A model generated the notes under the pieces. It ran no database searches. It was given only the letters and a program-made list of their open reading frames with translations, and was not told where the DNA came from. This document shows, one piece after another, positions 1,475 through 51,731 of a DNA stretch of 64,000 bases. Numbering within the stretch: position 1 is the first letter of the stretch; each line of letters opens with the position of its first letter. A program made the position numbers and the translations under genes. Origin of the DNA: a virus (taxonomy: Duplodnaviria; Caudoviricetes); IMG/VR virus record IMGVR_UViG_3300021255_000123, positions 21,435 to 85,434 of that record. One strand, given 5' to 3'.

Positions 1475-1915
1475 TTAGCAGATGCAGTAGCAGTCATCGA
1501 CATTGTTGTAGGTCAGGAAGAAGCCCTGCTTTTCAAGTTCGAGCTGCAACTCGGTGATTTGCATATCGGTCATTTCATCCAACTCCCGATACTCGGCGCT
1601 GCCATTGCAATAGGTCTCGCAATGGGCGTATTTTTTGACTAAATCTGTTTTTACCATGATGATTGATTTTACTGGTTTGATGAATACTTGTTCTGGATTG
1701 TGCTCCAGTTTGTCCCAATCGATATTCTGATAGGGTTCCACCGGCTCAACATGTACGTTGCGGAGGCCGATGCCGCACTCTTCTGATACGAAGTTGGGCT
1801 GAATGGCCAGACCGAGGGCGAAATGGTCTTTCTCCTCTTGTGGCATATCGGCATAGTAACTGTTGTCATCCTGCTCGTATTCTATGCGGACAACTACGTT
1901 GACGACTCGTTTCAT
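1475..1915 (-). CDS. Hypothetical acidic early protein
   Basis: 146-aa ORF; ATGA overlap with the upstream gene. Confidence 0.75.
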   Translation of the reverse strand: MKRVVNVVVRIEYEQDDNSYYADMPQEEKDHFALGLAIQPNFVSEECGIGLRNVHVEPVEPYQNIDWDKLEHNPEQVFIKPVKSIIMVKTDLVKKYAHCETYCNGSAEYRELDEMTDMQITELQLELEKQGFFLTYNNVDDCYCIC

Positions 1916-2271
1916 GCTTGGGCTCCTTTCTTGATTGCGTCGATTTCTGCTTGTAGGGCAACAATCTTAGCCTTCTCCTCGGAAGTGAGGATTTTGACGT
2001 GCTTGTTGACAAGCTCCGTCAGGGCCTCAAAGTCTTCTTTCTTATCGAAGATACCTTTGATGAACTCGTTGTGATAGCTGACGAATGTATCGGCAATGGT
2101 CATAGAGAACTTGACGTTTCCAACCCCAACTTTCACATGAGCGTAGTAGCCAGGATGGTCATCCGGCATGTACTCAGCTTTCAACTCCTCGTTGAGGAAG
2201 GCTTTGCGGATTTCGTCGCGCATAGTTTGGAGAGCCTGCTCGACACGGCTCATTTCCTTTGTGTTTTCCAT
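1912..2271 (-). CDS. Hypothetical early protein with C-terminal coiled coil
   Basis: 119-aa ORF with A-rich leader. Confidence 0.75.
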   Translation of the reverse strand: MENTKEMSRVEQALQTMRDEIRKAFLNEELKAEYMPDDHPGYYAHVKVGVGNVKFSMTIADTFVSYHNEFIKGIFDKKEDFEALTELVNKHVKILTSEEKAKIVALQAEIDAIKKGAQA

Positions 2272-8739: not shown

Positions 8740-9330
8740 TAGTTAGTTATTGGCTCAATTAATGCAATTGCGTTATTTGCTTTCCTATTTTGCACATATT
8801 GCAGAATGTGTTGTGTATGTTTTCCACATTGCGCACACTCTAATTGTCAGTGTAATATTGTCCGGTTGCATAGTTGTATATGCAGCGCCATGAATATGTG
8901 TGTACACTATATATAGCAAGTGCCAAACCTTAACACAATATACAACGTATTGTGCTTTCGTTGTGTCAATACTTACATAACTGGCAACTTGTTTTGTCAT
9001 GCAGTATATTGACAATGTTTTATTGCTATATAGTGAGTTATACAATTGTAAGTGCAATTTGCGTTGTATCATACAAACAATTGTATAACTGACAATTTGC
9101 AATGTTTTGTTGTGTCTGTCTGTTTCAACAAACATAACTTACACTTTTATATATTTTGTTGGCTGGTTTGTTTTCTGTTATTGCCGTTAGTGTATTGGCA
9201 GTGCAAAATATACAATGTATATCGTTATTTTCGTTTAATATACACAACGTTTCCCGTTTCTTATCCTCTCATGCCTTTCGGTATCATGAATGCCAATGTG
9301 AGTTGCAAAAACTCTAACAACGTTTGTTTC
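8740..9330 (-). other. AT-rich multi-hairpin non-coding leader (possible ncRNA or ssDNA structure)
   Basis: Perfect 14-bp stem 9036-9049/9077-9090; nested stems 8905-8919/9023-9035, 8965-8973/9003-9013 and about 8934-8954. Confidence 0.45.
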
Positions 9331-9413
9331 TGTGTCAATAAACTATATTACGGCTGTTTCAACTGCCTCAATGTTTCATGAATAACATACTTTTTCAACC
9401 CGCCAGCCAGTGT

Positions 9414-9426
9414 GTCAAAGAACTTT
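9414..9426 (-). promoter_or_regulatory. boxA-like antitermination site (AAAGTTCTTTGAC)
   Basis: About 25 nt downstream of the predicted early start site; near-identical word after the 15162 promoter. Confidence 0.55.
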
Positions 9427-9455
9427 CGAAAACCTTTTTGTTTCGTTTTCGGTTG

Positions 9456-31041: not shown

Positions 31042-34000
31042 ATGGCAGACAATGTTTCCGACGGAATAAAAAACCTTGACAAGTGGATTAAGAGTGCCGA
31101 CCAGTCGCTCTCCACGATGATGCAGCGATACGAACGTTTCCAGAGGGCCGCTTCCACTGGTGATGCGACCAAGATGCAACAGGCTTGGAACTCTTTGCAG
31201 ACGGGAGCAAATACGACTGCCGCAAAGCTCCGTACTCTCGAAAAAGAGATAAAGAATTTGAAGGCTCAGACGAAAGACCCGGCCAGCTTACAGCGCCTAG
31301 ACAAGTTGTTCCGTCAGCTCAACTCTGCATCCGGTGCTTGGGCCTCCGTGTTGGCCAGCGTCAACCGTGGCCAGCAGACGACTCAGGTGTTCGCCGAGAG
31401 ATTAGCCCGTGCGTTCGAGAAAGGCCAGAAGGCTCTTGCTGCGTTCAATACTGAGCAGACAAGAGGAGCTTCTGCAAGCAGTCGTCTGAATAGAGGTCTG
31501 GCTGATTTATTGCAGGGATTAACTGCATATTTTGGATTCCGTCAAATAGGCGGCTTTTTAAGAAACGTTGTTCAGATTCGAGGAGAATTTGAAAAGACAG
31601 AGGTTGCTCTGAGAAACATCATTGGCAACCAAGAGAAGGCAAATCTCATCTGGGAAAAAACAATGAATCTTGCAGTCAACTCGCCTTTCACAGCGAGACA
31701 ACTTACCAGTTACGTCAAGCAGCTTGCAGCTTATAGGATTGAGAATGACAAGATATTTGACACCACAAAGAGATTGGCCGATGTGTCTGCCGGTCTTGGT
31801 GTCGATATGCAACGCCTCATCCTTGCTTACGGTCAGGTGAAAGCAGCAAACTACCTCCGCGCTTCTGAAATTCGTCAGTTTACCGAGGCTGGTGTGAATA
31901 TCCTTGGAGAATTAGCTGATTATCTGTCAATAACGAGAGGAGAAATGATTTCTACCGCTCAGGTTATGGAAATGGTTCAGAAACGAATGGTGAAGTTTGA
32001 AGATGTCGAGGCCATATTCAAGCGTATGACAGACGAGGGTGGTACGTTCTACCACATGCAACAGGAGTTATCCAACACCGTGCAGGGCCAGATTAACAAA
32101 ATCAAAGACACTTGGCAACAGGCTATGAATGAACTTGGTAAATCTGACCAAGGATTGATAAGGGGAATCACCAATATGGTGTTGAGTATTGTGCGAAACT
32201 GGAGGACTTGGGTAACGGCAATAGAATCTTCTGTAATAGCCATTATCGCCTTTAAAGCGACGAATGTTGTCCGGGCACTTACATCTACGGCATACGCTGC
32301 CAATGCTGCAACCAAAAGCACTCTCCGTTTAGCTAATGCGTTCAAGAGTCTAGGAAAGGGATTGAAGGCGAATTGGGTTGCTTTGGCAATCGCCGCCGTA
32401 GCCGCCGCCGCAACGGAGCTTTTCATGGCTACAAAGCGCATGAAGGACTTCAATGATGAGATTGATGAACAATCCATCACTCTATACGATGCCCAGCAGA
32501 AGATGTATGAGTATCAGAATACCGTCGAGAGAAATAACGGCATATTAAAGGATGCGAAGAGTAAGGAAGAGGACATTAAGAATGCCAGAGAAGAGAATTT
32601 GAAGGTCCTCAGTGCCCTACGCAAGGAATATCCGGAATTGGTCGAGGGTATAGAACAACAGGCTAACGGTGAGGTTATTCTTACGCAGCGTATTGAAGCT
32701 CATAACGAATCTTTGCGGGAGCAAATACGACTGAATGAACAGTTAAAACAGAAGTCTATTACTGACGACCCGTTTGAGACTGATACAAGGCAGTATTTTG
32801 AGAAGCTGGATGAATGGAGAAAGAAGATACAAATTTCTCAGCAGCAACTTAAACTGAAACTACTTAGAGGTGAGATAAACAAAGACGAAAACCCGATAGT
32901 AGAAAGATTACTCGGTATAAATACTGACGACATTTTAAATGCCGTCAACGAATACAACCAGATAGTTGGTGAAGTTCAAGCTGTAATTGTAGGCAAAACT
33001 ACTGAGTTAAATAAGGCTTACAGGGAGGCGTTGAATGAGGCACAAAAAAATTTGTCTAACCCTGACAGTGCAAAAAAAGTACAGGAATTACAGAATAGAT
33101 TGATGAATTTGAGACATTTCGCAATCGAATCCAGCAATCTTGGAGCTGTCGCCGGCCTACCACTTATTGATACAGATGTACAGGAAACAAGGGAGTTTAA
33201 AAAAGAATCTGATGCCATAGTAAAAGAGCTTATCGGGAGCTTTGAACTTGGTGTTAGGGCACTGGATAACGAGCAAAAATTGATTCAGGAAACCTACAAT
33301 GGTAATTTTGCTGAGTATCTAAAAGCTAACGGCTCCCGTCTCAGGGAAATGGTCGAAACTAATACTGTTGACGTAAACGAAACCATTAGAACATTCTTGG
33401 AGAAAAACGGACAAGCCCTGACCGACGAGAACAAGAAGGTGTGGAACGACATCCTCAACGAATATATTTTTGGTGCAGATAAGGCTCGGAGAATCATGGA
33501 AATTACATTCCAGATGATGTCGGAGAAAGACCCGTTTGTCAGGAATATGCTGTCTCGCCAGATGCAGGAAATAAAGGATGAATATTACGATTTCTTTGCT
33601 TCCTACACTTCTCCTACAAAGGGTGATGGTCTTGAAGACAAGAATAAGACATATAAGTCCATTGATAGTCTGATTTCTTTGCTCAAAACCATGAACAGTG
33701 AGTATGGGAAGCTGTCAAAATCAGCGTATGGTTTTGCTAAGTCTCAGGAAACCGTTATGGAGGTTTTCAAAGAGTCATTCAAAGACATAATGAAGGCCAC
33801 GAAGGGTGGTGGGTTCGCTCTCGACAAGGCGTTTACCATGGTTGACTGGAATAAGCTTGACATCACCTCAAAAGGCGGTGTGGCAGCAGCTTTGCAGCAG
33901 GTGTATGATTACCTTGACGGTCACAAGATGTGGGGGCAGTTCGGTAAGAATGCTGAGGAGGTTCGCAAGAAATTTGAGAAGGAAATGGCATCATGGAAAG

Positions 34001-36603
34001 TTGAAGCCGGGGTGGAATTACAGGTCCAGATGCGTGACGATTTCAAGAAACAGATGGAGCAAATGTTCTCTGATTACGAGCTTACCGTTACGCTTCAAGG
34101 AATGGATATTTCTGCTCAGGCTGCAAAAGACTGGCTGAATGTAGATTTTACCTCTCTTGGCGATATGCAAGCTGCTATGTCTGCTTTTGCTGATAAGCAG
34201 ATTGCTAAGGGCACTTGGGACCAAGATGATATAGAGGCATACTTGCAGTGGTCAAAGAAGGTTGAAAATCAAATATATAAAGAGCGTAGAGACAAGGCGA
34301 AAGAGTATTCCAAGTATCTTGAAAAAGAGTTGAGTGAACGAGCAAAACTCGAAATGGAATATACAAAGAAAGTTGTTGAGGTTAGAAGTAGTAGGGCTTT
34401 CACAGAGGACCAGCAGACGGCTATCCTTACCAACATGAAGCAGGAGTATGAAAATGCTCTGCGTGACTTGTCTTGGAAATCGTTTAAGGAAAGTGACTTC
34501 TATGAGGAAATGATGGACGACCTGACGTCCATCCCGGCAGAGTATTCTCAAATCATGCTTGATAAGTTGAACGAGATACTTGCTCACCCGGAAGACCTTT
34601 CGCCCCGTGCCTTAAAAGAGGCTATCAATGCCAGACAAAAGGTTATGGAGGCTCGTCGTCAGATGGACCCCATGTCAGCCATGAGAGACAATCGTGCAGG
34701 TTTTCGTAACTTTTATCAGAATGAAGAAAATCGACAAGAGTTTGGTATCAATGCAAAAACTTGGAAAGAGGCCGAAAAAGAGATTGATGGTTTAATTGTT
34801 AAGAAGACAAGAGAGCTTGCTCAACTGGAAGAAGAAATCACCATATATGACAAGCTGATTGGCGAGATAACCACCTACAATAACAAAAAGCGGGCCGCAG
34901 AGCAGTCAATGATTGGCCTTGGTGGTACAATCGAAGATTATGATGTTGCTGGTTTACAGGAAGAAATTGACAATATCCAGCTTGTACTTGACCCATTAGA
35001 GAAAGAGCAGGACCGATATGAGACTCTGCGCGATTTGAAGCAGCAAGGCGCAGAAATTGACGAGCAGGAGTATAAGAATTTGCTTGAAAGCCTCGCTGTC
35101 AGACAGCAAAAAATAGCACAGCTGAGTAGTGAAATAGCATTATATCAGTTGGCAAAACAGGCGAGAATCGAATACGACCAAGCCGAGCAGGGACTATCCT
35201 CTCAGGGTCGAACCCTTATTCAAGGTGGAGAAGTAACTGTAGGCCAAACTACCGGTGTGACAGCTCAAAATATTGGCTCTAACAGACAAGCCGCCGTAAC
35301 AAAGAAGGATACGACCAAAGGGGCGTTACAAAAGATGAAAGATGCCAAGAAAATGTCTAAAGAATGGGCTATGGCTTGGCATGAATTTAATGCTCAGTTA
35401 GGTAGCACAATAAAGAGTGTCGCTAGTATGGGTTCCGCGTTCATGGACACATACGAAGCCCTCGGAGGCGAGACCAATGCACTTACGGAGGGCTGGAAGG
35501 AGTTTGGCTCCACTATGGTCGATGTGATTGTTCAGGCCCTCGAAATGATACCCACCCTCGTTACAGGGTTTACGGCAACTGGTGAGGCCATCAATTCCGC
35601 CATGGGCATCATCGGACTTATTGCAAAGGCCATTCAGCTTGTCTTGACTGCGATTACCGCAATATCCAAACTTCACGATGCCGGATATGAGAAGGAAATT
35701 GAGAATCAACAGAAGAAGATTGACGAACTAAAATCCGCATACGAGCGTCTGGAGAAGGCTATTGAGAAGACTTGGACCACGATGTCCTATATCGACACCT
35801 ACAATCAGCAGGTAGAGAATATCAAGCAGCAGATAGAGGCTCTGGAGGCCCAGCGTAACGCCGAAAACTCCAAAAAGAACACTGATGAGGACAAAATCCG
35901 CGAGTATGGCGACTCCATCCAAGAGGCATACGACGAACTGGAGGAACTGGAGCAGAAGCGTATCGAGGTGTTTGGTGGTCTCGGTGAGGTCAACTACCGT
36001 AGTGCTGCCGAGGAATTTGTATCTGCATGGAAGGATGCCTTCCTTGAAACCGGCGACGGTCTGGAGGCATTGCAGGAACATTTTGACGAGTTCTTGCAGG
36101 AGTGGTTTGTGAAACAGGCCACGATGCGTATTGCCGGAGCCATGCTGGAGCGTACCTTCCGCATGATTGACGAATCGGTCAACGAGAGTAGTGAGGGCGG
36201 TGTAGCTGTTACCATGGCAGAACTACAAGCTATCCGGGATGAGTTTGCAACTCAGGCTCCGCTTATCTCCGAGGCTTTGGAGGAGTTGGCCGGAATGTGG
36301 GACCTTGGTAACGGAGAAGGCTCTCTCAGCGGCCTTGCAGCCGGCATACAGGGCATGACCGAGGAACAGGCAAATATCCTCGAAGCGTACTGGAACAGTG
36401 TCAGGATGTACACGGCAAACATTGATGGAAATGTCGAGCGTATTGCCAATATTCTTGGCGCCGGCGGCTCCGCAACCAATCCTCAGTTGCAGCAGTTACA
36501 GATAATAGCGCAGCACACCGAGGCCATCCACAATCTGCTTGACAATGTTACAAGGAGTGGCCATCCGCAGGGAGGTCTTGGTATAAAGGTGTTTAACAAC
36601 TAA
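31042..36603 (+). CDS. Tape measure protein
   Basis: 1853 aa, helical; tape-measure N-terminal motif RGEFEKTEVALRNIIG...SPFTARQL...KQLAAY. Confidence 0.92.
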   Translation: MADNVSDGIKNLDKWIKSADQSLSTMMQRYERFQRAASTGDATKMQQAWNSLQTGANTTAAKLRTLEKEIKNLKAQTKDPASLQRLDKLFRQLNSASGAWASVLASVNRGQQTTQVFAERLARAFEKGQKALAAFNTEQTRGASASSRLNRGLADLLQGLTAYFGFRQIGGFLRNVVQIRGEFEKTEVALRNIIGNQEKANLIWEKTMNLAVNSPFTARQLTSYVKQLAAYRIENDKIFDTTKRLADVSAGLGVDMQRLILAYGQVKAANYLRASEIRQFTEAGVNILGELADYLSITRGEMISTAQVMEMVQKRMVKFEDVEAIFKRMTDEGGTFYHMQQELSNTVQGQINKIKDTWQQAMNELGKSDQGLIRGITNMVLSIVRNWRTWVTAIESSVIAIIAFKATNVVRALTSTAYAANAATKSTLRLANAFKSLGKGLKANWVALAIAAVAAAATELFMATKRMKDFNDEIDEQSITLYDAQQKMYEYQNTVERNNGILKDAKSKEEDIKNAREENLKVLSALRKEYPELVEGIEQQANGEVILTQRIEAHNESLREQIRLNEQLKQKSITDDPFETDTRQYFEKLDEWRKKIQISQQQLKLKLLRGEINKDENPIVERLLGINTDDILNAVNEYNQIVGEVQAVIVGKTTELNKAYREALNEAQKNLSNPDSAKKVQELQNRLMNLRHFAIESSNLGAVAGLPLIDTDVQETREFKKESDAIVKELIGSFELGVRALDNEQKLIQETYNGNFAEYLKANGSRLREMVETNTVDVNETIRTFLEKNGQALTDENKKVWNDILNEYIFGADKARRIMEITFQMMSEKDPFVRNMLSRQMQEIKDEYYDFFASYTSPTKGDGLEDKNKTYKSIDSLISLLKTMNSEYGKLSKSAYGFAKSQETVMEVFKESFKDIMKATKGGGFALDKAFTMVDWNKLDITSKGGVAAALQQVYDYLDGHKMWGQFGKNAEEVRKKFEKEMASWKVEAGVELQVQMRDDFKKQMEQMFSDYELTVTLQGMDISAQAAKDWLNVDFTSLGDMQAAMSAFADKQIAKGTWDQDDIEAYLQWSKKVENQIYKERRDKAKEYSKYLEKELSERAKLEMEYTKKVVEVRSSRAFTEDQQTAILTNMKQEYENALRDLSWKSFKESDFYEEMMDDLTSIPAEYSQIMLDKLNEILAHPEDLSPRALKEAINARQKVMEARRQMDPMSAMRDNRAGFRNFYQNEENRQEFGINAKTWKEAEKEIDGLIVKKTRELAQLEEEITIYDKLIGEITTYNNKKRAAEQSMIGLGGTIEDYDVAGLQEEIDNIQLVLDPLEKEQDRYETLRDLKQQGAEIDEQEYKNLLESLAVRQQKIAQLSSEIALYQLAKQARIEYDQAEQGLSSQGRTLIQGGEVTVGQTTGVTAQNIGSNRQAAVTKKDTTKGALQKMKDAKKMSKEWAMAWHEFNAQLGSTIKSVASMGSAFMDTYEALGGETNALTEGWKEFGSTMVDVIVQALEMIPTLVTGFTATGEAINSAMGIIGLIAKAIQLVLTAITAISKLHDAGYEKEIENQQKKIDELKSAYERLEKAIEKTWTTMSYIDTYNQQVENIKQQIEALEAQRNAENSKKNTDEDKIREYGDSIQEAYDELEELEQKRIEVFGGLGEVNYRSAAEEFVSAWKDAFLETGDGLEALQEHFDEFLQEWFVKQATMRIAGAMLERTFRMIDESVNESSEGGVAVTMAELQAIRDEFATQAPLISEALEELAGMWDLGNGEGSLSGLAAGIQGMTEEQANILEAYWNSVRMYTANIDGNVERIANILGAGGSATNPQLQQLQIIAQHTEAIHNLLDNVTRSGHPQGGLGIKVFNN

Positions 36604-43792: not shown

Positions 43793-46700
43793 ATGGCAAG
43801 AACAAACATTTCCGATTTGAAGAACAAAATCGAAAATGAGGGTATGACCGAGCAGGGTCGATTGGGTGCCAATGAGTTTAACAGACTTATTGATGCAGTC
43901 ATCGAAAACCAAGGCAGTATCCTTTCTGTCAGCTTGAACGGTAGTGAGCCTACTACTCCGGATAAGGATGGTAACTTAAACCTTACCATTGCTCTTGGCG
44001 ATTATGAGCAGGTTCTTACTATTAAGTACAACGGCAGCGAGGTCTCTGGCGGTGCATCCATACTTAGCGCTGACGGCGATGTTACTCTGCAAGTACAGTA
44101 CAAGGAAAGTTCTGTTACTCAGGGTAGCGGAGGTCAAGCTTCGTATAGCCCAACAGGTCAGATTGTCACCCTTACCGCCTATGGTGTTAGTGCCACTGGC
44201 GGTCTTTCCACTTTGTTCTCACGGTCCCTGCAGTCTGTCGGGCATGACAGTACTGTATTCACCGACATCCCGCTGAAAGATTACCTCAGCAACGGTGAGC
44301 AAAACATCCAGATTCGTATCACGAATACGATTAACGCTAATCCTCTACAGCAACTTCTTACGATTGTCAAAGCTAATCTAGAACTTCGTATTGAGGGTGA
44401 TGCCGCTTGGTATCGTGATGCAAAGATTATGAATGGCAGTAACGCCAGTCTTACGTCTCGATACATTGTGCTTGGCGCAGTCGAGAAGGCTCTGCATGTG
44501 AAATTTATTGGCGCCAGTGGCAACAGGACAATCGATGTGACTGGTATCACATCCAACTCGCCCACGGAAATCATTACCGCCACATTCACGGAGACTCTGG
44601 CCAATAATATTGGCTTCTTTGGAACCAATGGAGTAAGGACTGTTGAGGCTTGGATTACTTGTACCTATGGCACACAGACGGTAGAAAGTAACCACATCAC
44701 GAACCAAATTATCGTTGTGGCTGATGAGTCTACTGCTACTCCGATGATTGCTCTGCAGAGTAAGATTGCAACGATGCCGAACTACGAGACTGTAACAATC
44801 TTCTCGTGGAACATGTACAATCCAAGTCTCGGAACAAACGAAACTTCGGATGTTGAGTTTACTCTGGCTAACCAGACAAAGACGACCGTGTGGCTCACTC
44901 AGCTCATTGAAGATGCCGAGAACAACACCCTATACCCGTTCTCGCAGAACGTGAGTATTGAGGCTAGTGGTGACTATATCGACGTCTATGTGTTTGCAAA
45001 AGTGGATGATGTGGCCGTCGGCGACGCTGAGTTGGCATATTTCCAAGTAGACAACACTATCGACTACTCTGCTGTTGCAGGTCCAGATTTTTACATCAAT
45101 CCCGGTTTGCGCTCAAATTCTGAGAGTAATCCTGCGCGTATCATCAACTCCTACGACAATGCCGTTGTCTCCGGATGTACTTTCGAGAATATGGCATGGC
45201 AGGATGGCGTTGATGGTTGGATGCAGGGTGCCGACGGTAGACGATTCTTGCGTATCGCATCTGGTGGTAAGATTACCATCCCTTACGATGTGTACTCGCA
45301 ATTCACAAGCAACAGCCGTCACTTCCTGACAATCGAGATTGATTTTGCGGCCCGCAACATCACGAATGAGGCTGACCCTGTTATCACTATCGGCAACCGC
45401 AACTTTGCGGCTCCGAAGGGCCTCTACATGAAGCCGCTGAACGGTGCCTTTATGACCGGAAACCAGACGAACTGGGATAATGCCGATGTATCATGGCAGG
45501 AGAACACCAGAACGCATCTTGTGTTCAATATTTGCCATAACTACACAATCAGCAATCCTGATACCACTCGTGGTACTGACCAGCCGACAACGAAGACTCT
45601 GGCCCTCATCCGCACCTATATCAATGGTATCATCAATAAGGAATACACCTTTGATACCAATGAGGCTTCCGAAATCAACGCCGGAGGTGATATTGTTCTC
45701 GGTCAGGCCGGATTCCTTCTCCTGCCTTCCGAGCCAGAAGACTGGGACACCAACTATGGTAACTACTACATCTACTCCAATGGTGAGTATGTGGCTATCG
45801 ATGCGGTTTCCGCTCCCACATTTGCAACCAATACCTACTACAAGAAGATTGATTCTGGATGTGACCTCGACATCTACTGCTTCCGTGTTTATAAGGACAC
45901 AAATGACAAATCGAATCTCGGTCCTGCGGAGGTCATCAAAAACAGAATCTCGGTCCTTCCTACCGGTGCAGAACGTGCGGCTTTCAAGTCCGCTAACGAC
46001 ATTTTGCAAGGTGGTCTGATTAGCTTCAACAAGGCTCTGGCAGCTGGTTACAATTGTCTCGTTTGGCATGGTCTCCCGGTAAACAAAAACAACTCCAACA
46101 GCCAGAAGCGATACGGATATGCCGAAATCTATCGACATAAGGCCGACGGCTCTCTGGATGTCGAACACAGCGGTAAACTGTATGGCATAGAAATGAAGGG
46201 TCAGGGAACCACCGCTATGGGTTATGCAGAGTGGAATATCCAGTTCAAAGAGGACAAGAAAACCGGAAGTGGCCATGATGAGTTCAAGTACAACGATAAT
46301 GGAACGCTCCGAAACGTCTTCGTTGATGATGATGGTGTTATAGCCTATGGTAGTAGCAGCAAAAAGTTTGGCTTCAAACTTGATACCACCGACCCGGCTG
46401 GCAAGAAACTTGTTGGTAAGGTCAACTATGCCTCTTCGATGCAGAGCCACAAAGAGGGCGCTTGTAACCTTTATAACGACCTATATGCCAGTATTGTAAC
46501 AAATAGTGTTACCGACTTTAGCTCTCACGAGCGTGTGACCGTAAAGGAAGAGCCGTTTTTGTATTTCGTTCAGCGCACGGAAGGTAGCGATGACGGCCTC
46601 AAAGTATTCCAAGGTCTTATGACGTTTGGCCCCGGTAAGGCTGACAAGCCGACGTGGGGTGTAAGTGATAGCGACCTTGCAGCTGGCGACAGTATGCTCG

Positions 46701-49700
46701 AAGGTTCGTTGAACAACAACCCTCTGGGTGATGCTCGCGTACCGTTCATCGATAATGGTGACATCACTTACTCCGTAAGTAATGAGGCATTCATGTATTC
46801 CGGTGCAAAGAACCTGAATTTCAGCTTCGGAGACACCGCAGACCTTCACGACGGACAGGGTGCTTGGGAGCATGTTGTACAGGATGGTGATGAGGCTTCA
46901 AGCGAGGTGCCGACTACAGCTCAGGTGAAACTCTGGCAGCCAATTTTCAACTTCTTGTATCTCACCAATGTTGGAATCAAGCCTTGGAATGGTACTTTGG
47001 CCGAGTTGAACACTGCAGCTGAAAGTGACGACTTCGACTATAAGTCAGCCTACTGGATGAACGGCGCCGGCTCAGGCTATTCTCGTTTTGACCTATACCG
47101 TTGTCGCTATACCAGAAACGGTAACGAGGAGAGTCGCGAATTTGTTCCTGCCGGTCTCCGACTGGTACAAGGTACGAAAACATTCCTCAACTTCAACTGT
47201 CTTTACGCGACATCCACTTCCGACACCACTAAGCCGCAGGAGTATACTTCTTCGGATATGTGGTACGATACCGACTCTAACGGTATCCGCAATCTGACGT
47301 TGAACATCAAGACTGCACTGGAGAATGCTCTCGGTATCACAATTAGCACAAGCGGTGTTTCCGCTGACAGCCTGAATACCACATTCAAGACTCAGCTTGC
47401 AAATCTATTTGCATCCTATGTCAATTCCAACCTCTATCTCAATAAACAGAGTCACCTCTTCCACCATGAGATTATGAAACTCTGGGCTGGAACCGATAAC
47501 CGCTCGAAGAATACGTATTACCGTCTTAACATCACCCTCACTCGTCCGAATATGGAAATGAATGACGATGACCTTGATACTATCTTCAAGACAAACAATG
47601 CCGGTATTCAGTCCAAGCCTTACTACATCCTTGAACACGACACGGATGATGCTGGTAGAACGTACTGGGACGGTCAGGATAACGCTCTGAACAACACTCT
47701 GGAGGCAACATACGGTAGTACGCTCGGTGTTAGCGGAGACCGTCAGAATGAGTTGCAGGGTATGATGAATACTATTCTAACCCGTATGGTTGGGCTTGTC
47801 TCTGCCGGCGACACAATGCCGGATGGTACTGAGATTCCTAACACTCCTATGGGTTGCATGGATAAGTATTTCTTCAAGATTCAGAAGTACTTCCCTGCCG
47901 TGGCCTACAATGAGACTGCGCGTATCCGTTACGAGGTTCCTGCTACATTCTACATGTCGGAACAGCCAGCACAGGCCCCTCTCACTCAGTCGTTGGGAGA
48001 CCAGTACGATAGTGAGCGTGAGTATGTTAAGCGTCGTATAATCATGTTAGCCGGTTATGCCGGTTATGAGCTTGATATGCTGTCGTTCCGTGGTTATCTT
48101 GGTTCTTATACGGCCAACATCATTCCGCACTTTTGGCTCTACCCGATGTCGAAGATGGGTAATCCGTCCGACGCTCCCGTCAAGAGCAACGTTCGTGTTC
48201 CTGCCGGTACACAGTACACTCTCGGTATGGGTACTGCTGTTAGCGGTAACACTATCTTCCTGCACTTTATCAATGAGCTTACCGACATCGGCAATATCGG
48301 TCCTTGGGGTAATGGTAGCAAGGATGGTGACGCTAGTTCTATTCTTACATTCAAGTCTGAGCGACTCCGTTCTTTCAAGTGTTTTGGCGCCACAACCGCA
48401 GATGTGACGTTCCCTCTGGGCGTTGCGGATATTAGTGAGTCTACCAATATTGAGGAGATTAACTGCCGCAACTGTGCGACACTTACATCTTTCGACCGTG
48501 GTATCTCCAACCTGATGCGTCTGCGCAGCATTGACCTCCGTGGCACCAATGTAACCACGGTAGGTCTGCCCCAGACAACATCCTTGGAGACTGTTAGACT
48601 TCCCGGCGGTTTCACGGTAATCAACATTACCAAATGCCCGAATCTTGAAACCCTTTCGGTTGGTGACTTCTCAGGCATGACCCGTATTGCTATTGCAGCA
48701 CCTGTTAAGTTCAATACTCTTGAATTTATGATGGGTTGCTACAGCTACAATATCACTCAGTCAGAGAATGTTATACAGAACGTTAGCTTGACTGGTGTTG
48801 ACTGGTCAAATGTAACCGCATCCTTCCTGAATTGGCTGCTGTCTGTCAACACCCTCACGCTTACCGGACGTATCCACATGGTTCGTAACTCCAGCGGCCA
48901 GATTACCTTCGCTTTGAAGAAGAAACTCATCGAGAAGTTTGGCAATGTTGATAGTGAGTCAAACTCACTTTACATTGACTACGAATCAAATACGCTCGGT
49001 TCTGTTCAAGTTACCGGTGACGGTTACATTGGTTCTGTCGGTGAGGTGAAGCATTACGACCTCATCCCGAATGTGGCTAGCGGTAACACTATTAAGTCTT
49101 ACGCTTGGACTATCTCTGGTGGCAGTTCCGGTATCGACCCGGACGACTATGCCGAGGTTGATGCACTTGGTAATGTCACCTGCAAGCAGATGGGTGTGGA
49201 GTCTGGTGGCTCAGGTCCTACTGTCACACTCCAGTGTGTTGTGACACTTACCAACGGAAACACACTACCAGCTGTTACGATGGATATTCGTTGTTATTTC
49301 CGTCAGGCCAAACTAGGTGACTACGTGTATCACGATGGCACTTGGGATGACCGATTGAATGTCGCGAAATCTGTTATCGGCATCTGCTTCTACTGCAAGA
49401 AAGTTGTGGTTGATGGTGGCGCCGGCGACTGGTACGACCGCCGTATGGTTGCATGTGCCAACGTGAACAGCAGACCATGGGGCCTCTATCCAAATGGCGA
49501 TTCCAAGGGAACGAACGGTTTCGCCTCCAGAGGTGCTAACGCACTGAAATACATGCTTAATGGTGTTGCAACAGACCCATGGGACGTACCTCTACTGAGC
49601 AACATCACTTCTGCCGGCACCTCGTACACTACCTACGCGAACATGATTGACACCAACAACCTCGACCCCGGATTCCCGGAGAACGACCCGCAGCGCTACT

Positions 49701-50413
49701 TCAAGCAATACAGCAACAGTACGGCTGTTGGTAGATTTAATCTCGTCGAAATGGGCCAGAGTATTAAGAGCGACGTCTTCGGTTCCGACAATATGTACAC
49801 CGCAGAGAGCATGGTCCCGCAGGGCCTCTATGATACTGCTTGCATCATCCGTCATCGTAACAACGTACTTTCGGGCACCACTTACGACAACGGAACGCCT
49901 AGCAACCCTGACGACGATACGAACTATACCTACTTCAAGCCCAGCGATGACAGCCGTGGCAATCTTTCTGACATGATGTTGGCAATCAAGAATTTCGCTG
50001 CGAACACCATCGGCGACACCTACACCGATATTTACATGCGGTATCTCTATCCGGCGGCCTCTGAGTGCTTTGCTTACGAGCCTTCCGTGTCTAGCGATAA
50101 TGCTCTCGCGGATAAATTCAAGTGCCACCACTGGTATCTGCCAAGCATCGGTGAGCTTGCTCGTCTGTGCTTCCTGTCAATGACATGCTACAGTGGTTCG
50201 TCGATTTACGAAGCTTCTGCGGCTGCACTCTTTGGCGATATATTTGCCAATGCTGTAACCGCTGGTAAGTTTACCAGAATGTCGGCTTCTTACTACTGGA
50301 GTTCCACTGAGTTTAATAGCGACAGCGCTTGGTGCGGGTATTTCAGTCCAGGGCGCATCGACAGCGGTCCCAAGTACAGCACTTCCGTTGTCCGGCCCGT
50401 GGCCGCATTTTAA
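43793..50413 (+). CDS. Giant receptor-binding/tail fibre protein with LRRs, an Ig-like domain and a C-terminal C-type-lectin-like DGR target domain
   Basis: 2206 aa; LRR LRSIDLRGTNV; Ig-like YAWTISGG...VTLQCVVT; ends WYLPSIGEL...YWSSTE...AW...VRPVAAF. Confidence 0.88.
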   Translation: MARTNISDLKNKIENEGMTEQGRLGANEFNRLIDAVIENQGSILSVSLNGSEPTTPDKDGNLNLTIALGDYEQVLTIKYNGSEVSGGASILSADGDVTLQVQYKESSVTQGSGGQASYSPTGQIVTLTAYGVSATGGLSTLFSRSLQSVGHDSTVFTDIPLKDYLSNGEQNIQIRITNTINANPLQQLLTIVKANLELRIEGDAAWYRDAKIMNGSNASLTSRYIVLGAVEKALHVKFIGASGNRTIDVTGITSNSPTEIITATFTETLANNIGFFGTNGVRTVEAWITCTYGTQTVESNHITNQIIVVADESTATPMIALQSKIATMPNYETVTIFSWNMYNPSLGTNETSDVEFTLANQTKTTVWLTQLIEDAENNTLYPFSQNVSIEASGDYIDVYVFAKVDDVAVGDAELAYFQVDNTIDYSAVAGPDFYINPGLRSNSESNPARIINSYDNAVVSGCTFENMAWQDGVDGWMQGADGRRFLRIASGGKITIPYDVYSQFTSNSRHFLTIEIDFAARNITNEADPVITIGNRNFAAPKGLYMKPLNGAFMTGNQTNWDNADVSWQENTRTHLVFNICHNYTISNPDTTRGTDQPTTKTLALIRTYINGIINKEYTFDTNEASEINAGGDIVLGQAGFLLLPSEPEDWDTNYGNYYIYSNGEYVAIDAVSAPTFATNTYYKKIDSGCDLDIYCFRVYKDTNDKSNLGPAEVIKNRISVLPTGAERAAFKSANDILQGGLISFNKALAAGYNCLVWHGLPVNKNNSNSQKRYGYAEIYRHKADGSLDVEHSGKLYGIEMKGQGTTAMGYAEWNIQFKEDKKTGSGHDEFKYNDNGTLRNVFVDDDGVIAYGSSSKKFGFKLDTTDPAGKKLVGKVNYASSMQSHKEGACNLYNDLYASIVTNSVTDFSSHERVTVKEEPFLYFVQRTEGSDDGLKVFQGLMTFGPGKADKPTWGVSDSDLAAGDSMLEGSLNNNPLGDARVPFIDNGDITYSVSNEAFMYSGAKNLNFSFGDTADLHDGQGAWEHVVQDGDEASSEVPTTAQVKLWQPIFNFLYLTNVGIKPWNGTLAELNTAAESDDFDYKSAYWMNGAGSGYSRFDLYRCRYTRNGNEESREFVPAGLRLVQGTKTFLNFNCLYATSTSDTTKPQEYTSSDMWYDTDSNGIRNLTLNIKTALENALGITISTSGVSADSLNTTFKTQLANLFASYVNSNLYLNKQSHLFHHEIMKLWAGTDNRSKNTYYRLNITLTRPNMEMNDDDLDTIFKTNNAGIQSKPYYILEHDTDDAGRTYWDGQDNALNNTLEATYGSTLGVSGDRQNELQGMMNTILTRMVGLVSAGDTMPDGTEIPNTPMGCMDKYFFKIQKYFPAVAYNETARIRYEVPATFYMSEQPAQAPLTQSLGDQYDSEREYVKRRIIMLAGYAGYELDMLSFRGYLGSYTANIIPHFWLYPMSKMGNPSDAPVKSNVRVPAGTQYTLGMGTAVSGNTIFLHFINELTDIGNIGPWGNGSKDGDASSILTFKSERLRSFKCFGATTADVTFPLGVADISESTNIEEINCRNCATLTSFDRGISNLMRLRSIDLRGTNVTTVGLPQTTSLETVRLPGGFTVINITKCPNLETLSVGDFSGMTRIAIAAPVKFNTLEFMMGCYSYNITQSENVIQNVSLTGVDWSNVTASFLNWLLSVNTLTLTGRIHMVRNSSGQITFALKKKLIEKFGNVDSESNSLYIDYESNTLGSVQVTGDGYIGSVGEVKHYDLIPNVASGNTIKSYAWTISGGSSGIDPDDYAEVDALGNVTCKQMGVESGGSGPTVTLQCVVTLTNGNTLPAVTMDIRCYFRQAKLGDYVYHDGTWDDRLNVAKSVIGICFYCKKVVVDGGAGDWYDRRMVACANVNSRPWGLYPNGDSKGTNGFASRGANALKYMLNGVATDPWDVPLLSNITSAGTSYTTYANMIDTNNLDPGFPENDPQRYFKQYSNSTAVGRFNLVEMGQSIKSDVFGSDNMYTAESMVPQGLYDTACIIRHRNNVLSGTTYDNGTPSNPDDDTNYTYFKPSDDSRGNLSDMMLAIKNFAANTIGDTYTDIYMRYLYPAASECFAYEPSVSSDNALADKFKCHHWYLPSIGELARLCFLSMTCYSGSSIYEASAAALFGDIFANAVTAGKFTRMSASYYWSSTEFNSDSAWCGYFSPGRIDSGPKYSTSVVRPVAAF
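50291..50413 (+). other. DGR variable region (VR) with IMH-like 3' end
   Basis: YWSSTEFNSDSAWCGYFSPGRIDSGPKYSTSVVRPVAAF; many NNC/NNT codons (AGC GAC AGC, TGC, CGC ATC GAC AGC, TAC AGC) as expected from AAY mutagenesis. Confidence 0.75.
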
Positions 50414-50427
50414 TTAGGATAATAAAA

Positions 50428-50468
50428 CCTTCGGCGGGCGAGCTTCGACGCCTCGCCCGCCCAGAAGG
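50428..50468 (+). other. GC-rich hairpin/cruciform downstream of the VR (DGR homing element)
   Basis: Perfect 10-bp stem GGCGGGCGAG/CTCGCCCGCC extended by CCTTC/GAAGG. Confidence 0.75.
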
Positions 50469-50514
50469 TTAAAAACAGAAAATCAAACAATAAACAAAGA
50501 AAGGAGAAATTCTT

Positions 50515-50727
50515 GTGAAGGCAGAGCAGTCATCGTTGTATCGTCACCTAGAGACATTACACTTCTGGGCACTCGAAACTTTTGAGAATGTTCCAAAGAA
50601 CACGGCGTTACAGACTGACGTTAAACTCGTTGTGGAGAATATCGTTCAGGCGCAGACAGCTGTGGCGATGGCTCTTTTGACCGAATGGGTATGCCAAGCG
50701 AATGAAAATTCTGTTGTCGTACAATAA
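50515..50727 (+). pseudogene. avd: Truncated Avd-like four-helix-bundle accessory protein
   Basis: MKAEQSSLYRHLETLHFWALETFENVPK... resembles the Bacteroidota Avd N-terminus; only 70 aa, and the resemblance ends near ALLTE. Confidence 0.65.
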
Positions 50728-50860
50728 ATTTTACAAATTTGCGTACTTAAAAACAAATAAACACGTTGTTAAACTCAGAAGACAATACACAATAGGAGAA
50801 TTAAGATATGAGAAAGACAGAATGGAGAGGGCAAGAATGTCCTCCTACGTACTTGACTAG
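50681..50860 (+). pseudogene. Probable C-terminal scrap of the DGR reverse transcriptase (GYAKRMKILLSYNKFYKFAYLKTNKHVVKLRRQY)
   Basis: Open frame overlapping the avd tail; the basic/aromatic pattern resembles the end of Bacteroidota DGR RTs. From recollection, unverified. Confidence 0.45.
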
Positions 50861-51263
50861 GAACAACGGTGGTCAGCTGCAGCTGATAATCTACACCGAT
50901 GTCAGGCAAGAGATTGGAGAAAACGAACAGGTCACTTATGTGGCCACAGAAATTACAATGCCGATTGGTATTGTTGACTACGGCAGCATTGTGAGTGCCA
51001 TCATTTATGCTCACTACAGTTTCGACCAGATGCAAGCCATAGTGAACAACTACCTGATGGAAACGGACGTGTCTGTCCTGATTAACCTTTTGCAGACTAC
51101 GCAGAATTTCAACAAACTGCGTCAGGCGATGTCATCATGGCTCAGTAACCGCGACTCCGAGATTGTTGCCGAGTACAACGCCATGCAGGAGTATTGCAAG
51201 TATGCCAAGCAGCTTGCCAAAACCATCGTCAATGAATTTGAACCTAATCCAGAGGAGGAATAA
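50808..51263 (+). CDS. Hypothetical protein commonly found after tail fibre genes (IVSAII..HYSFDQMQAIVNNY...EY..MQEY..YAK)
   Basis: 151-aa ORF; recurrent motif in Bacteroidota phages. Confidence 0.75.
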   Translation: MRKTEWRGQECPPTYLTRNNGGQLQLIIYTDVRQEIGENEQVTYVATEITMPIGIVDYGSIVSAIIYAHYSFDQMQAIVNNYLMETDVSVLINLLQTTQNFNKLRQAMSSWLSNRDSEIVAEYNAMQEYCKYAKQLAKTIVNEFEPNPEEE

Positions 51264-51266
51264 GTC

Positions 51267-51731
51267 ATGGGAAGAAGCTCACAGTATAACCACTATTTCC
51301 AGCGTATCGACATTCCGGGCCAGAATGTTATCGACATCGAGGAGTATTTCCCCGGCCTGTTGTACGAGAAAGCAGATGGAATCAACAACATCGGGAAGAC
51401 CAAGAATGTCTATACCGAGGAGTATGCCGACAGCGACCGCAAGCGGTATTTCCTGCCGGACGACAACAACTACGCCAACGAGGGCACGGAGGTTACGATG
51501 ACATTCCTTGTCGTCGGCACCCCGGTCGAGAGAGAGAACATCATCCACAATTTCTTCGAGTATGTCCGCAAGGGTGTACACCGCTATTGGGACAACGCCC
51601 GCAACCGGGAGTTTGACTTCATAGTAACGAATGAGTTGAAGGTGGGAGAGGAGCGCTGGCACGGAAGCAATCCCTATGCCGAGCTGACGGTCCACATGCA
51701 GAACCTTAACGGCTACACCAGACCTCACTAG
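51267..51731 (+). CDS. Putative distal-tail (Dit)-like protein
   Basis: 154 aa; Y.EEYADSD...Y.P and TMTFL...F.EY motifs. Confidence 0.5.
   Translation: MGRSSQYNHYFQRIDIPGQNVIDIEEYFPGLLYEKADGINNIGKTKNVYTEEYADSDRKRYFLPDDNNYANEGTEVTMTFLVVGTPVERENIIHNFFEYVRKGVHRYWDNARNREFDFIVTNELKVGEERWHGSNPYAELTVHMQNLNGYTRPH

Follow-up and report, generated by a model that had tools for sequence, protein, structure and literature searches.

How does a phage genome come to carry the target and the predicted homing signals of a diversity-generating retroelement (DGR), together with pieces of its other genes, and neither a template repeat (TR) nor an intact reverse transcriptase (RT)? This question is raised by a stretch of 64,000 nucleotides, called the window here, which comprises bases 21435-85434 of the 85,434-bp virus record IMGVR_UViG_3300021255_000123, a genome that has direct terminal repeats and is rated complete. 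A first-pass annotation had described a 2206-aa tail fibre ending in a C-type-lectin (CLec) motif, a perfect 10-bp GC hairpin, a 70-aa Avd-like open reading frame (ORF) whose resemblance to Avd ends near 50683-50690, and a second frame resembling the end of DGR RTs. It had found no TR and no YxDD RT in the window, and had proposed that one deletion removed the 3' half of avd, the TR and almost all of the RT gene. The present analysis bears out this picture. The locus is very probably a DGR of a type known from gut or rumen samples, where large phages carry it, and was recently inactivated by one deletion of 1,561 bp.

Gene remnants and the deletion that joined them

Two gene fragments meet downstream of the target gene. 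The first is an avd remnant (50515..50685, plus strand), which comprises codons 1-57 of 137, i.e., helix 1 and most of helix 2, and is 98% identical to the Avd of an intact relative in a tblastn search. The second is an RT remnant (50684..50860, plus strand), which consists of the last 58 codons (residues 425-482) and the stop codon. According to the junction alignment, the 70-aa ORF (50515..50727, plus strand) is a chimera. The 70-aa ORF and the 59-aa peptide of the second frame found nothing credible in Pfam, PHROGs or NCBIfam, tblastn searches of 50,697 phage genomes with both remained without a match at E <= 10, and blastn of positions 50200-51300 against phage genomes gave no match either.

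The 59-aa peptide was also searched against longer proteins, and two were retrieved, P0005 (482 aa) and P0006 (495 aa), both with an RVT_1 and an Lcl_C domain. The RT remnant is identical to the C-terminus of P0005 at 57 of 58 residues (BLASTP; tblastn gave the same assignment). P0005 matches RVT_1 with 34.5 bits (cut-off 29.6), contains the DGR motifs IGNLTSQ and FVDD, and has the RT Brt of the Bordetella phage as its best solved relative (8ub7_A, E = 9e-13). The Lcl_C "domain" at the N-terminus of P0005 is the in-frame translation of the template repeat, which is rich in Asn (AAC) codons.

P0005 is encoded on the 46.7-kb Logan contig L010, on which a fibre gene (2213 aa) with a variable region (VR), a hairpin, avd (137 aa), the TR, the RT gene (482 aa) and the next genes follow one another. 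The VR of L010 differs from its own TR at 11 adenines and at no other position; the L010 element is a true DGR. In L010 (10001-11449) and in the distant intact relative L011 (3626-5113) the TR lies in frame within a 5' extension of the RT reading frame, so that gene prediction yields a fusion protein, "Lcl_C + RVT_1". The L010 VR (9310-9441) exceeds its TR by one codon, which lies inside a run of AAC codons; VR/TR indels of this kind have been described in other DGRs (PMC5758913).

The identity of Avd was likewise approached through full-length relatives, which have 128-137 aa and share a conserved C-terminal GRWRN motif. A search of the family profile against PDB sequences retrieved designed helical repeats only and was uninformative, so that structure comparison was needed. 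The AlphaFold (AF2) model of the L010 protein is a four-helix bundle (pLDDT 90.7), and its best PDB folds in a Foldseek search were 2gsc, the Avd chains of the DGR ribonucleoprotein 8ub7 and bAvd (4dwl), with target-normalised TM-scores of 0.82-0.91. In addition, one family member has a weak match to bAvd (PF22296, E = 0.0017). The 137-aa protein is accepted as Avd on the strength of the modelled fold, this weak match and its position between the VR and the TR-RT part.

The comparison with L010 defines the deletion. L010 7847-9713 corresponds to window 48822-50685 with 98.2% identity, and L010 11273-11647 corresponds to window 50684-51058 with 98.7% identity. Outside the VR the identity is 99.4%, with 10 differences in the 1,736 bp of the left flank and 5 in the 375 bp of the right flank. 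A three-way alignment with both L010 flanks revealed that 1,561 bp are absent from the window, namely avd codons 58-137, the whole TR and RT codons 1-424, as the proposed single deletion had implied. The junction is at 50684..50685 (plus strand), where the annotation had seen the Avd resemblance stop, and it has a 2-bp AA microhomology and the imperfect forms ACCGAA and ACCAA. As 1,561 is 3n+1, the Avd and RT remnants are out of frame, and the 70-aa ORF therefore consists of 57 Avd residues followed by 13 unrelated residues from the out-of-frame RT tail. Two distant loci that were found via the downstream gene, L003 and L004, were uninformative as a comparison, because they have no DGR at that position.

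The missing parts were not found elsewhere. In the whole 85,434-bp genome tblastn recovered just Avd residues 1-57 and RT residues 425-482, neither the genome nor the 64-kb window contains an RVT_1 match or a YxDD RT, and no third copy of the repeat was detected in the 85,434 bp, including a search with the inferred TR at word size 7. The absence of TR and RT that had been reported for the window thus extends to the entire genome. An ORF of 243 aa with the word YMDD (55959..56690) was ruled out as an RT because it has no RVT match. Of a functional DGR, the RT of the DGR clade, with its motifs (L/I/V)GxxxSQ and YxDD, is reduced to its last 58 residues, a TR differing from the VR essentially at adenines is absent from the genome, and 57 of the 137 residues of the Avd four-helix bundle are left.

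These results can be combined into the following scenario. The intact form has the order target gene with a C-terminal Lcl_C/C-type-lectin VR, GC hairpin, avd, TR in the 5' part of the RT frame, RT and next gene. The deletion, most likely caused by replication slippage or illegitimate recombination, fused avd codon 57 to RT codon 425 at the 2-bp microhomology and took away the two C-terminal Avd helices, the whole TR and the catalytic core of the RT. Judging from the missing parts, the phage could no longer produce mutagenised cDNA, and its variable regions would now change by ordinary mutation only, i.e., they would be frozen.

A presence/absence polymorphism could in principle also arise by insertion, in which case the window would represent the ancestral empty site and its relatives would have gained the cassette. 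The polymorphism itself, and nothing further, agrees with this. However, the window retains avd codons 1-57 and the final 58 codons of the RT gene, and an insertion cannot complete two genes. Moreover, these remnants are in different reading frames, indicating a deletion in the window and not an insertion in a relative, and the full layout is present in 12 of 12 other relatives examined (L010, L011, L013 and nine of nine IMG/VR loci found with the Avd profile). An insertion is thus extremely improbable.

The genome was assembled from a metagenome, and VR/TR repeats can confuse assemblers. The junction might thus be a misjoin, the possibility that the first-pass annotation had wished to see checked, or it might stem from a minor subpopulation beside a dominant intact genome. 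However, the junction does not fall at a repeat; it lies away from the VR/TR repeat and shares only 2 bp. The same junction is present in L012, an ENA SPAdes contig (NODE_318, 85,382 bp, coverage 32.6) that is 100% identical over 8,456 bp, and in L015, a 1,035-bp contig of JGI 3300002641, and it was therefore seen in three assemblies from different pipelines. The source data sets are those behind ENA ERZ12302814, JGI 3300002641 and SRR873598. A scan of IMG/VR with the junction word retrieved the genome itself and nothing more. The genome closes with direct terminal repeats, and an artefact or rare variant is very unlikely.

Several points nevertheless weigh against the inactivation of a DGR by one deletion. 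The three assemblies with this junction may all stem from a single sample. The junction is known from assembled sequences. The remnant alone matches no family and owes its identity to full-length relatives, and the Foldseek matches of Avd have weak E-values (4.6e-3 to 0.11). Last, it is the missing parts that suggest the loss of function.

Two variable regions and their hairpins

The DGR target gene (43793..50413, plus strand) encodes 2206 aa and ends with YYWSSTEF...AW...VVRPVAAF. Its C-terminus matches the Pfam family PF07603 (Lcl_C/DUF1566, C-type-lectin-like) at residues 2109-2203 (E = 1.1e-8, 35.8 bits, curated cut-off 34.9). A PHROG search with the protein gave no match. The tape measure gene (31042..36603, phrog_9959) sits four genes upstream, and from its position, not from homology, the protein is presumed to be the tail fibre or receptor-binding protein.

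The variable region of this gene, VR1, covers 50283..50410 (plus strand) with a 120-nt core at 50291-50410, and it aligns with the TR of L010 (10062-10189) at 81% identity. Within a 115-nt core, 19 differences are at TR adenines and 3 elsewhere; over the VR1-TR comparison adenines account for 20 of 23 differences (binomial p = 3.6e-7). VR1 and the L010 VR differ at 25 of 128 bp, whereas the 1,736 bp of flank contain 10 differences, so that the VR is about 35-fold more variable than the flanks. The 3' end of VR1 is formed by a GC-rich 14-mer (50393..50406, plus strand), which was read from the sequence, resembles an initiation of mutagenic homing (IMH) element as defined in PMC5758913, and marks the 3' limit of the VR/TR homology. 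Immediately 3' of GCCGCA the two sequences split, with ATTT in the VR and ACTT in the TR. The gene thus has a C-terminal VR in a domain of the C-type-lectin fold, with changes concentrated at codon positions 1 and 2. The 3' end, GC-rich and IMH-like, precedes a GC-rich inverted repeat, and for both a role in homing is predicted.

The identity between the fibre gene and L010 is mosaic. The last 1.6 kb and the DGR remnant (window 48822-51058) are 99% identical, the middle of the gene (window 43793-48821) is 65-73% identical, and neighbouring genes are 86-93% identical. This mosaicism suggests a recent recombinational exchange of the receptor-binding/DGR module.

The inverted repeat downstream of VR1 (50426..50470, plus strand) can form a hairpin or cruciform, whose 17-bp stem has a bulge of 2 nt and whose loop of 9 nt includes TTCGAC. 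Within this stem lies the perfect 10-bp GC stem noticed before (50433-50442 paired with 50452-50461). The DNA fold energy is -19.2 kcal/mol (z = -5.4), which was equalled by none of 200 shuffled sequences. No T-run follows, and the hairpin is therefore not a canonical terminator. It is unchanged in L010. The hairpin of L011 has another stem and the loop TTCGAC, and the second variable region described below has its own 9-bp GC hairpin with the loop TTTGAT. The loop word TTYGAY is thus kept at all three loci while the stems differ, indicating that the hairpin structure is conserved via compensatory change. In a further relative, L014, the hairpin (about 166-207) lacks the 2-nt CA bulge and has a perfect 17-bp stem.

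VR1 DNA has one further copy in the genome, VR2 (genome 20433-20553, minus strand), about 0.9 kb before the window. It belongs to a second target gene (genome 20421-20876, minus strand; 1489..1944, minus strand, of locus L002), which is located some 0.6-1.0 kb ahead of window position 1 and whose 151-aa product consists almost entirely of an Lcl_C domain. The homology between VR1 and VR2 starts and ends abruptly, and the identity is 82%. The 22 differences are distributed over codon positions 1, 2 and 3 as 10, 10 and 2; of the 14 codons that differ, 13 are non-synonymous. Neither VR is the template of the other, and both are thus variable regions. In comparison with the L010 TR, VR2 has 16 changes at adenines and 1 elsewhere. 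VR1 and VR2 therefore both show the mutation pattern of a DGR. The exact VR2 protein is also encoded on contigs of Logan SRR873598 and JGI 3300002641, and a relative with 93.5% identity in the VR2 flanks, L005, has a heavily rewritten VR2. The idea of dating the loss by the non-adenine changes of the two orphan VRs (3 and 1) was rejected, because the intact L011 shows 3-4 of them, too.

The hallmarks of a DGR target, a GC-rich 3' end and a hairpin behind it, are retained by both VRs. Upon co-infection with a DGR-positive relative, or when the phage meets a related prophage, the RT, Avd and TR RNA of the relative might thus home to the retained IMH and hairpin signals and occasionally rewrite VR1 and VR2. 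Intact relatives with a compatible TR are common, with 12 sequences in the RT cluster at an identity of at least 90%, some of them on 80-kb contigs, and with L010 and L013 as examples, and the TR of L010 is homologous to both ends of VR1 and of VR2. DGR action on remote targets or in trans has also been reported (PMC8632793, in general and citing Wu et al.; PMC3521204; PMC12629997). Continued diversification by an intact co-infecting relative is plausible, as such relatives exist and the cis signals are kept. On the other hand, L012, the only other carrier of the deletion allele that includes VR1, has an identical VR1. On balance, rewriting of the orphan VRs in trans is unlikely, and the freezing of both VRs by the deletion remains the favoured reading.

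A TR was also sought outside the genome. Exact-pattern scans of IMG/VR and JGI metagenomes with invariant VR stretches found solely the VR2 gene of one relative (L005 = L006), and in GTDB genomes such invariant words led to three unrelated DUF1566 sequences and to no matching host TR; outside this phage group no matching TR was detected in the IMG/VR, JGI metagenome and GTDB scans. On balance, rewriting of the orphan VRs in trans is unlikely, and the freezing of both VRs by the deletion remains the favoured reading.

Recurrent loss of the cassette in relatives

The loss is not confined to the window. Relatives contain at least three more decayed alleles, which differ from it in their breakpoints, i.e., DGR loss recurs. 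L014 (1-1225) is 95% identical to L010 over the stretch from VR to avd and 97% identical over the RT tail. It has a separate deletion of 1,432 bp with an AAAA microhomology, after which an Avd of 124 aa and some 110 nt of the RT gene are left. In L018 (223-560) Avd is joined at about residue 53 to about residue 420 of the RT, and in L019 (107-504) Avd residue 83 is joined to about RT residue 331. All four junctions are out of frame. The data sets DRR855030 and DRR855096 yielded an intact and a deleted allele. A 78-aa protein, P0004, from a 556-bp contig (ENA ERZ27257203), is a short Avd homologue that leaves the family pattern after about residue 70; judging from its sequence, it may represent a fifth truncated allele.

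At each of the four different junctions a 5' piece of avd is followed by a 3' piece of the RT gene, and it was considered whether a hot spot or the element itself drives the deletions, by template switching of the RT or at a structure-prone site. The breakpoints of L018 are within about 5 codons of those of the window on both sides, despite a protein identity of only 52-65%, and where an intact relative allows a comparison (window and L014), the junctions carry microhomologies of 2-5 nt. However, such microhomologies are generic to deletions of this kind, L018 and L019 are short contigs, and the other alleles have different breakpoints, at residue 83 or 124 of Avd and near residue 331 or 446 of the RT. 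The next gene (50808..51263, plus strand, 151 aa, function unassigned) also has to be taken into account. Its start overlaps the RT tail, its homologue follows the RT gene in all intact relatives, and the overlap probably limits the rightward reach of viable deletions. Viable deletions that kill the DGR must therefore lie between the start of avd and this gene, and selection alone confines the breakpoints. The closeness of the L018 and window breakpoints may reflect chance, constraint or a hot spot; as an explanation of the deletions, a hot spot is decidedly improbable.

The recurrence of the loss leads to a wider idea. DGR-less genotypes could arise repeatedly as "free riders", which shed the cost of self-hypermutation, keep the homing signals and, only upon co-infection with a DGR-positive sibling, re-diversify their receptor-binding genes. 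Deletions made by the RT of the element itself might even account for the clustering of the breakpoints. This idea is speculative, and we regard it as quite unlikely. The window and L010 represent a natural knock-out with a matched wild type, as the genotypes are 99.4% identical around the locus and differ in avd, TR and RT. Cost and benefit of targeted hypermutation could thus be tested in natural populations by following the rise and fall of both genotypes and the variation of the orphan VRs. The locus also points to a blind spot of surveys. As no TR is left, detection programs anchored on RT or TR would miss it, and a genome with two clean VRs would score as DGR-negative.

Comparison with known systems

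The order of parts in the intact relatives is the same as in the DGR of the Bordetella phage BPP-1 (mtd with its VR, IMH, hairpin, avd, TR, brt). They share with it the C-terminal VR in a receptor-binding protein, the GC-rich IMH-like end, the GC inverted repeat, an Avd with a four-helix bundle, the TR and the RT, and the best solved relatives of RT and Avd are Brt and Avd (8ub7, 4dwl). In contrast to BPP-1, the window has lost 88% of the RT gene together with the TR and the 3' portion of avd, the VR domain is of the Lcl_C/DUF1566 (CLec2) type and not Mtd, and the TR lies inside a 5' extension of the RT reading frame. In addition, the hairpin loop has 6-9 nt here, compared with 4 nt in BPP-1.

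The class of the VR is that of the "category d" DGRs with DUF1566/CLec2 targets, such as LdtA of Legionella (Wu et al. 2018, PMC5758913), with YxWSST...AW...VRPV and PF07603. Category d includes short targets that consist of DUF1566 only beside long multidomain ones, comparable to the 151-aa and 2206-aa proteins with VR2 and VR1. Unlike the bacterial lipoprotein of the Legionella system, the target here is a presumed phage structural protein, and the element is non-functional, as judged from its missing parts. A second, remote VR is known from gut Bacteroidota phages (PMC12629997), which likewise have one cassette by a tail gene and a remote VR in a non-structural region; here, in contrast, both VRs are orphaned.

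Inactivated DGRs have also been described before, with RTs cut by transposon insertion, nonsense mutation or frameshift and with a decayed RT beside distal targets (Schillinger et al. 2012, PMC3521204). The locus resembles these cases in that the inactivation would be recent, the VR signature is still clean and targets lack an RT of their own. It differs from them by a single internal deletion, which also took the TR and half of avd, and by several independent deletion alleles within one phage family. Taken together, the locus belongs to a well-known system and has decayed in an expected way, and inactivated DGRs are on record already; specific to this case are the clean internal deletion that also removed the TR, the near-identical intact sibling and the several independent alleles.

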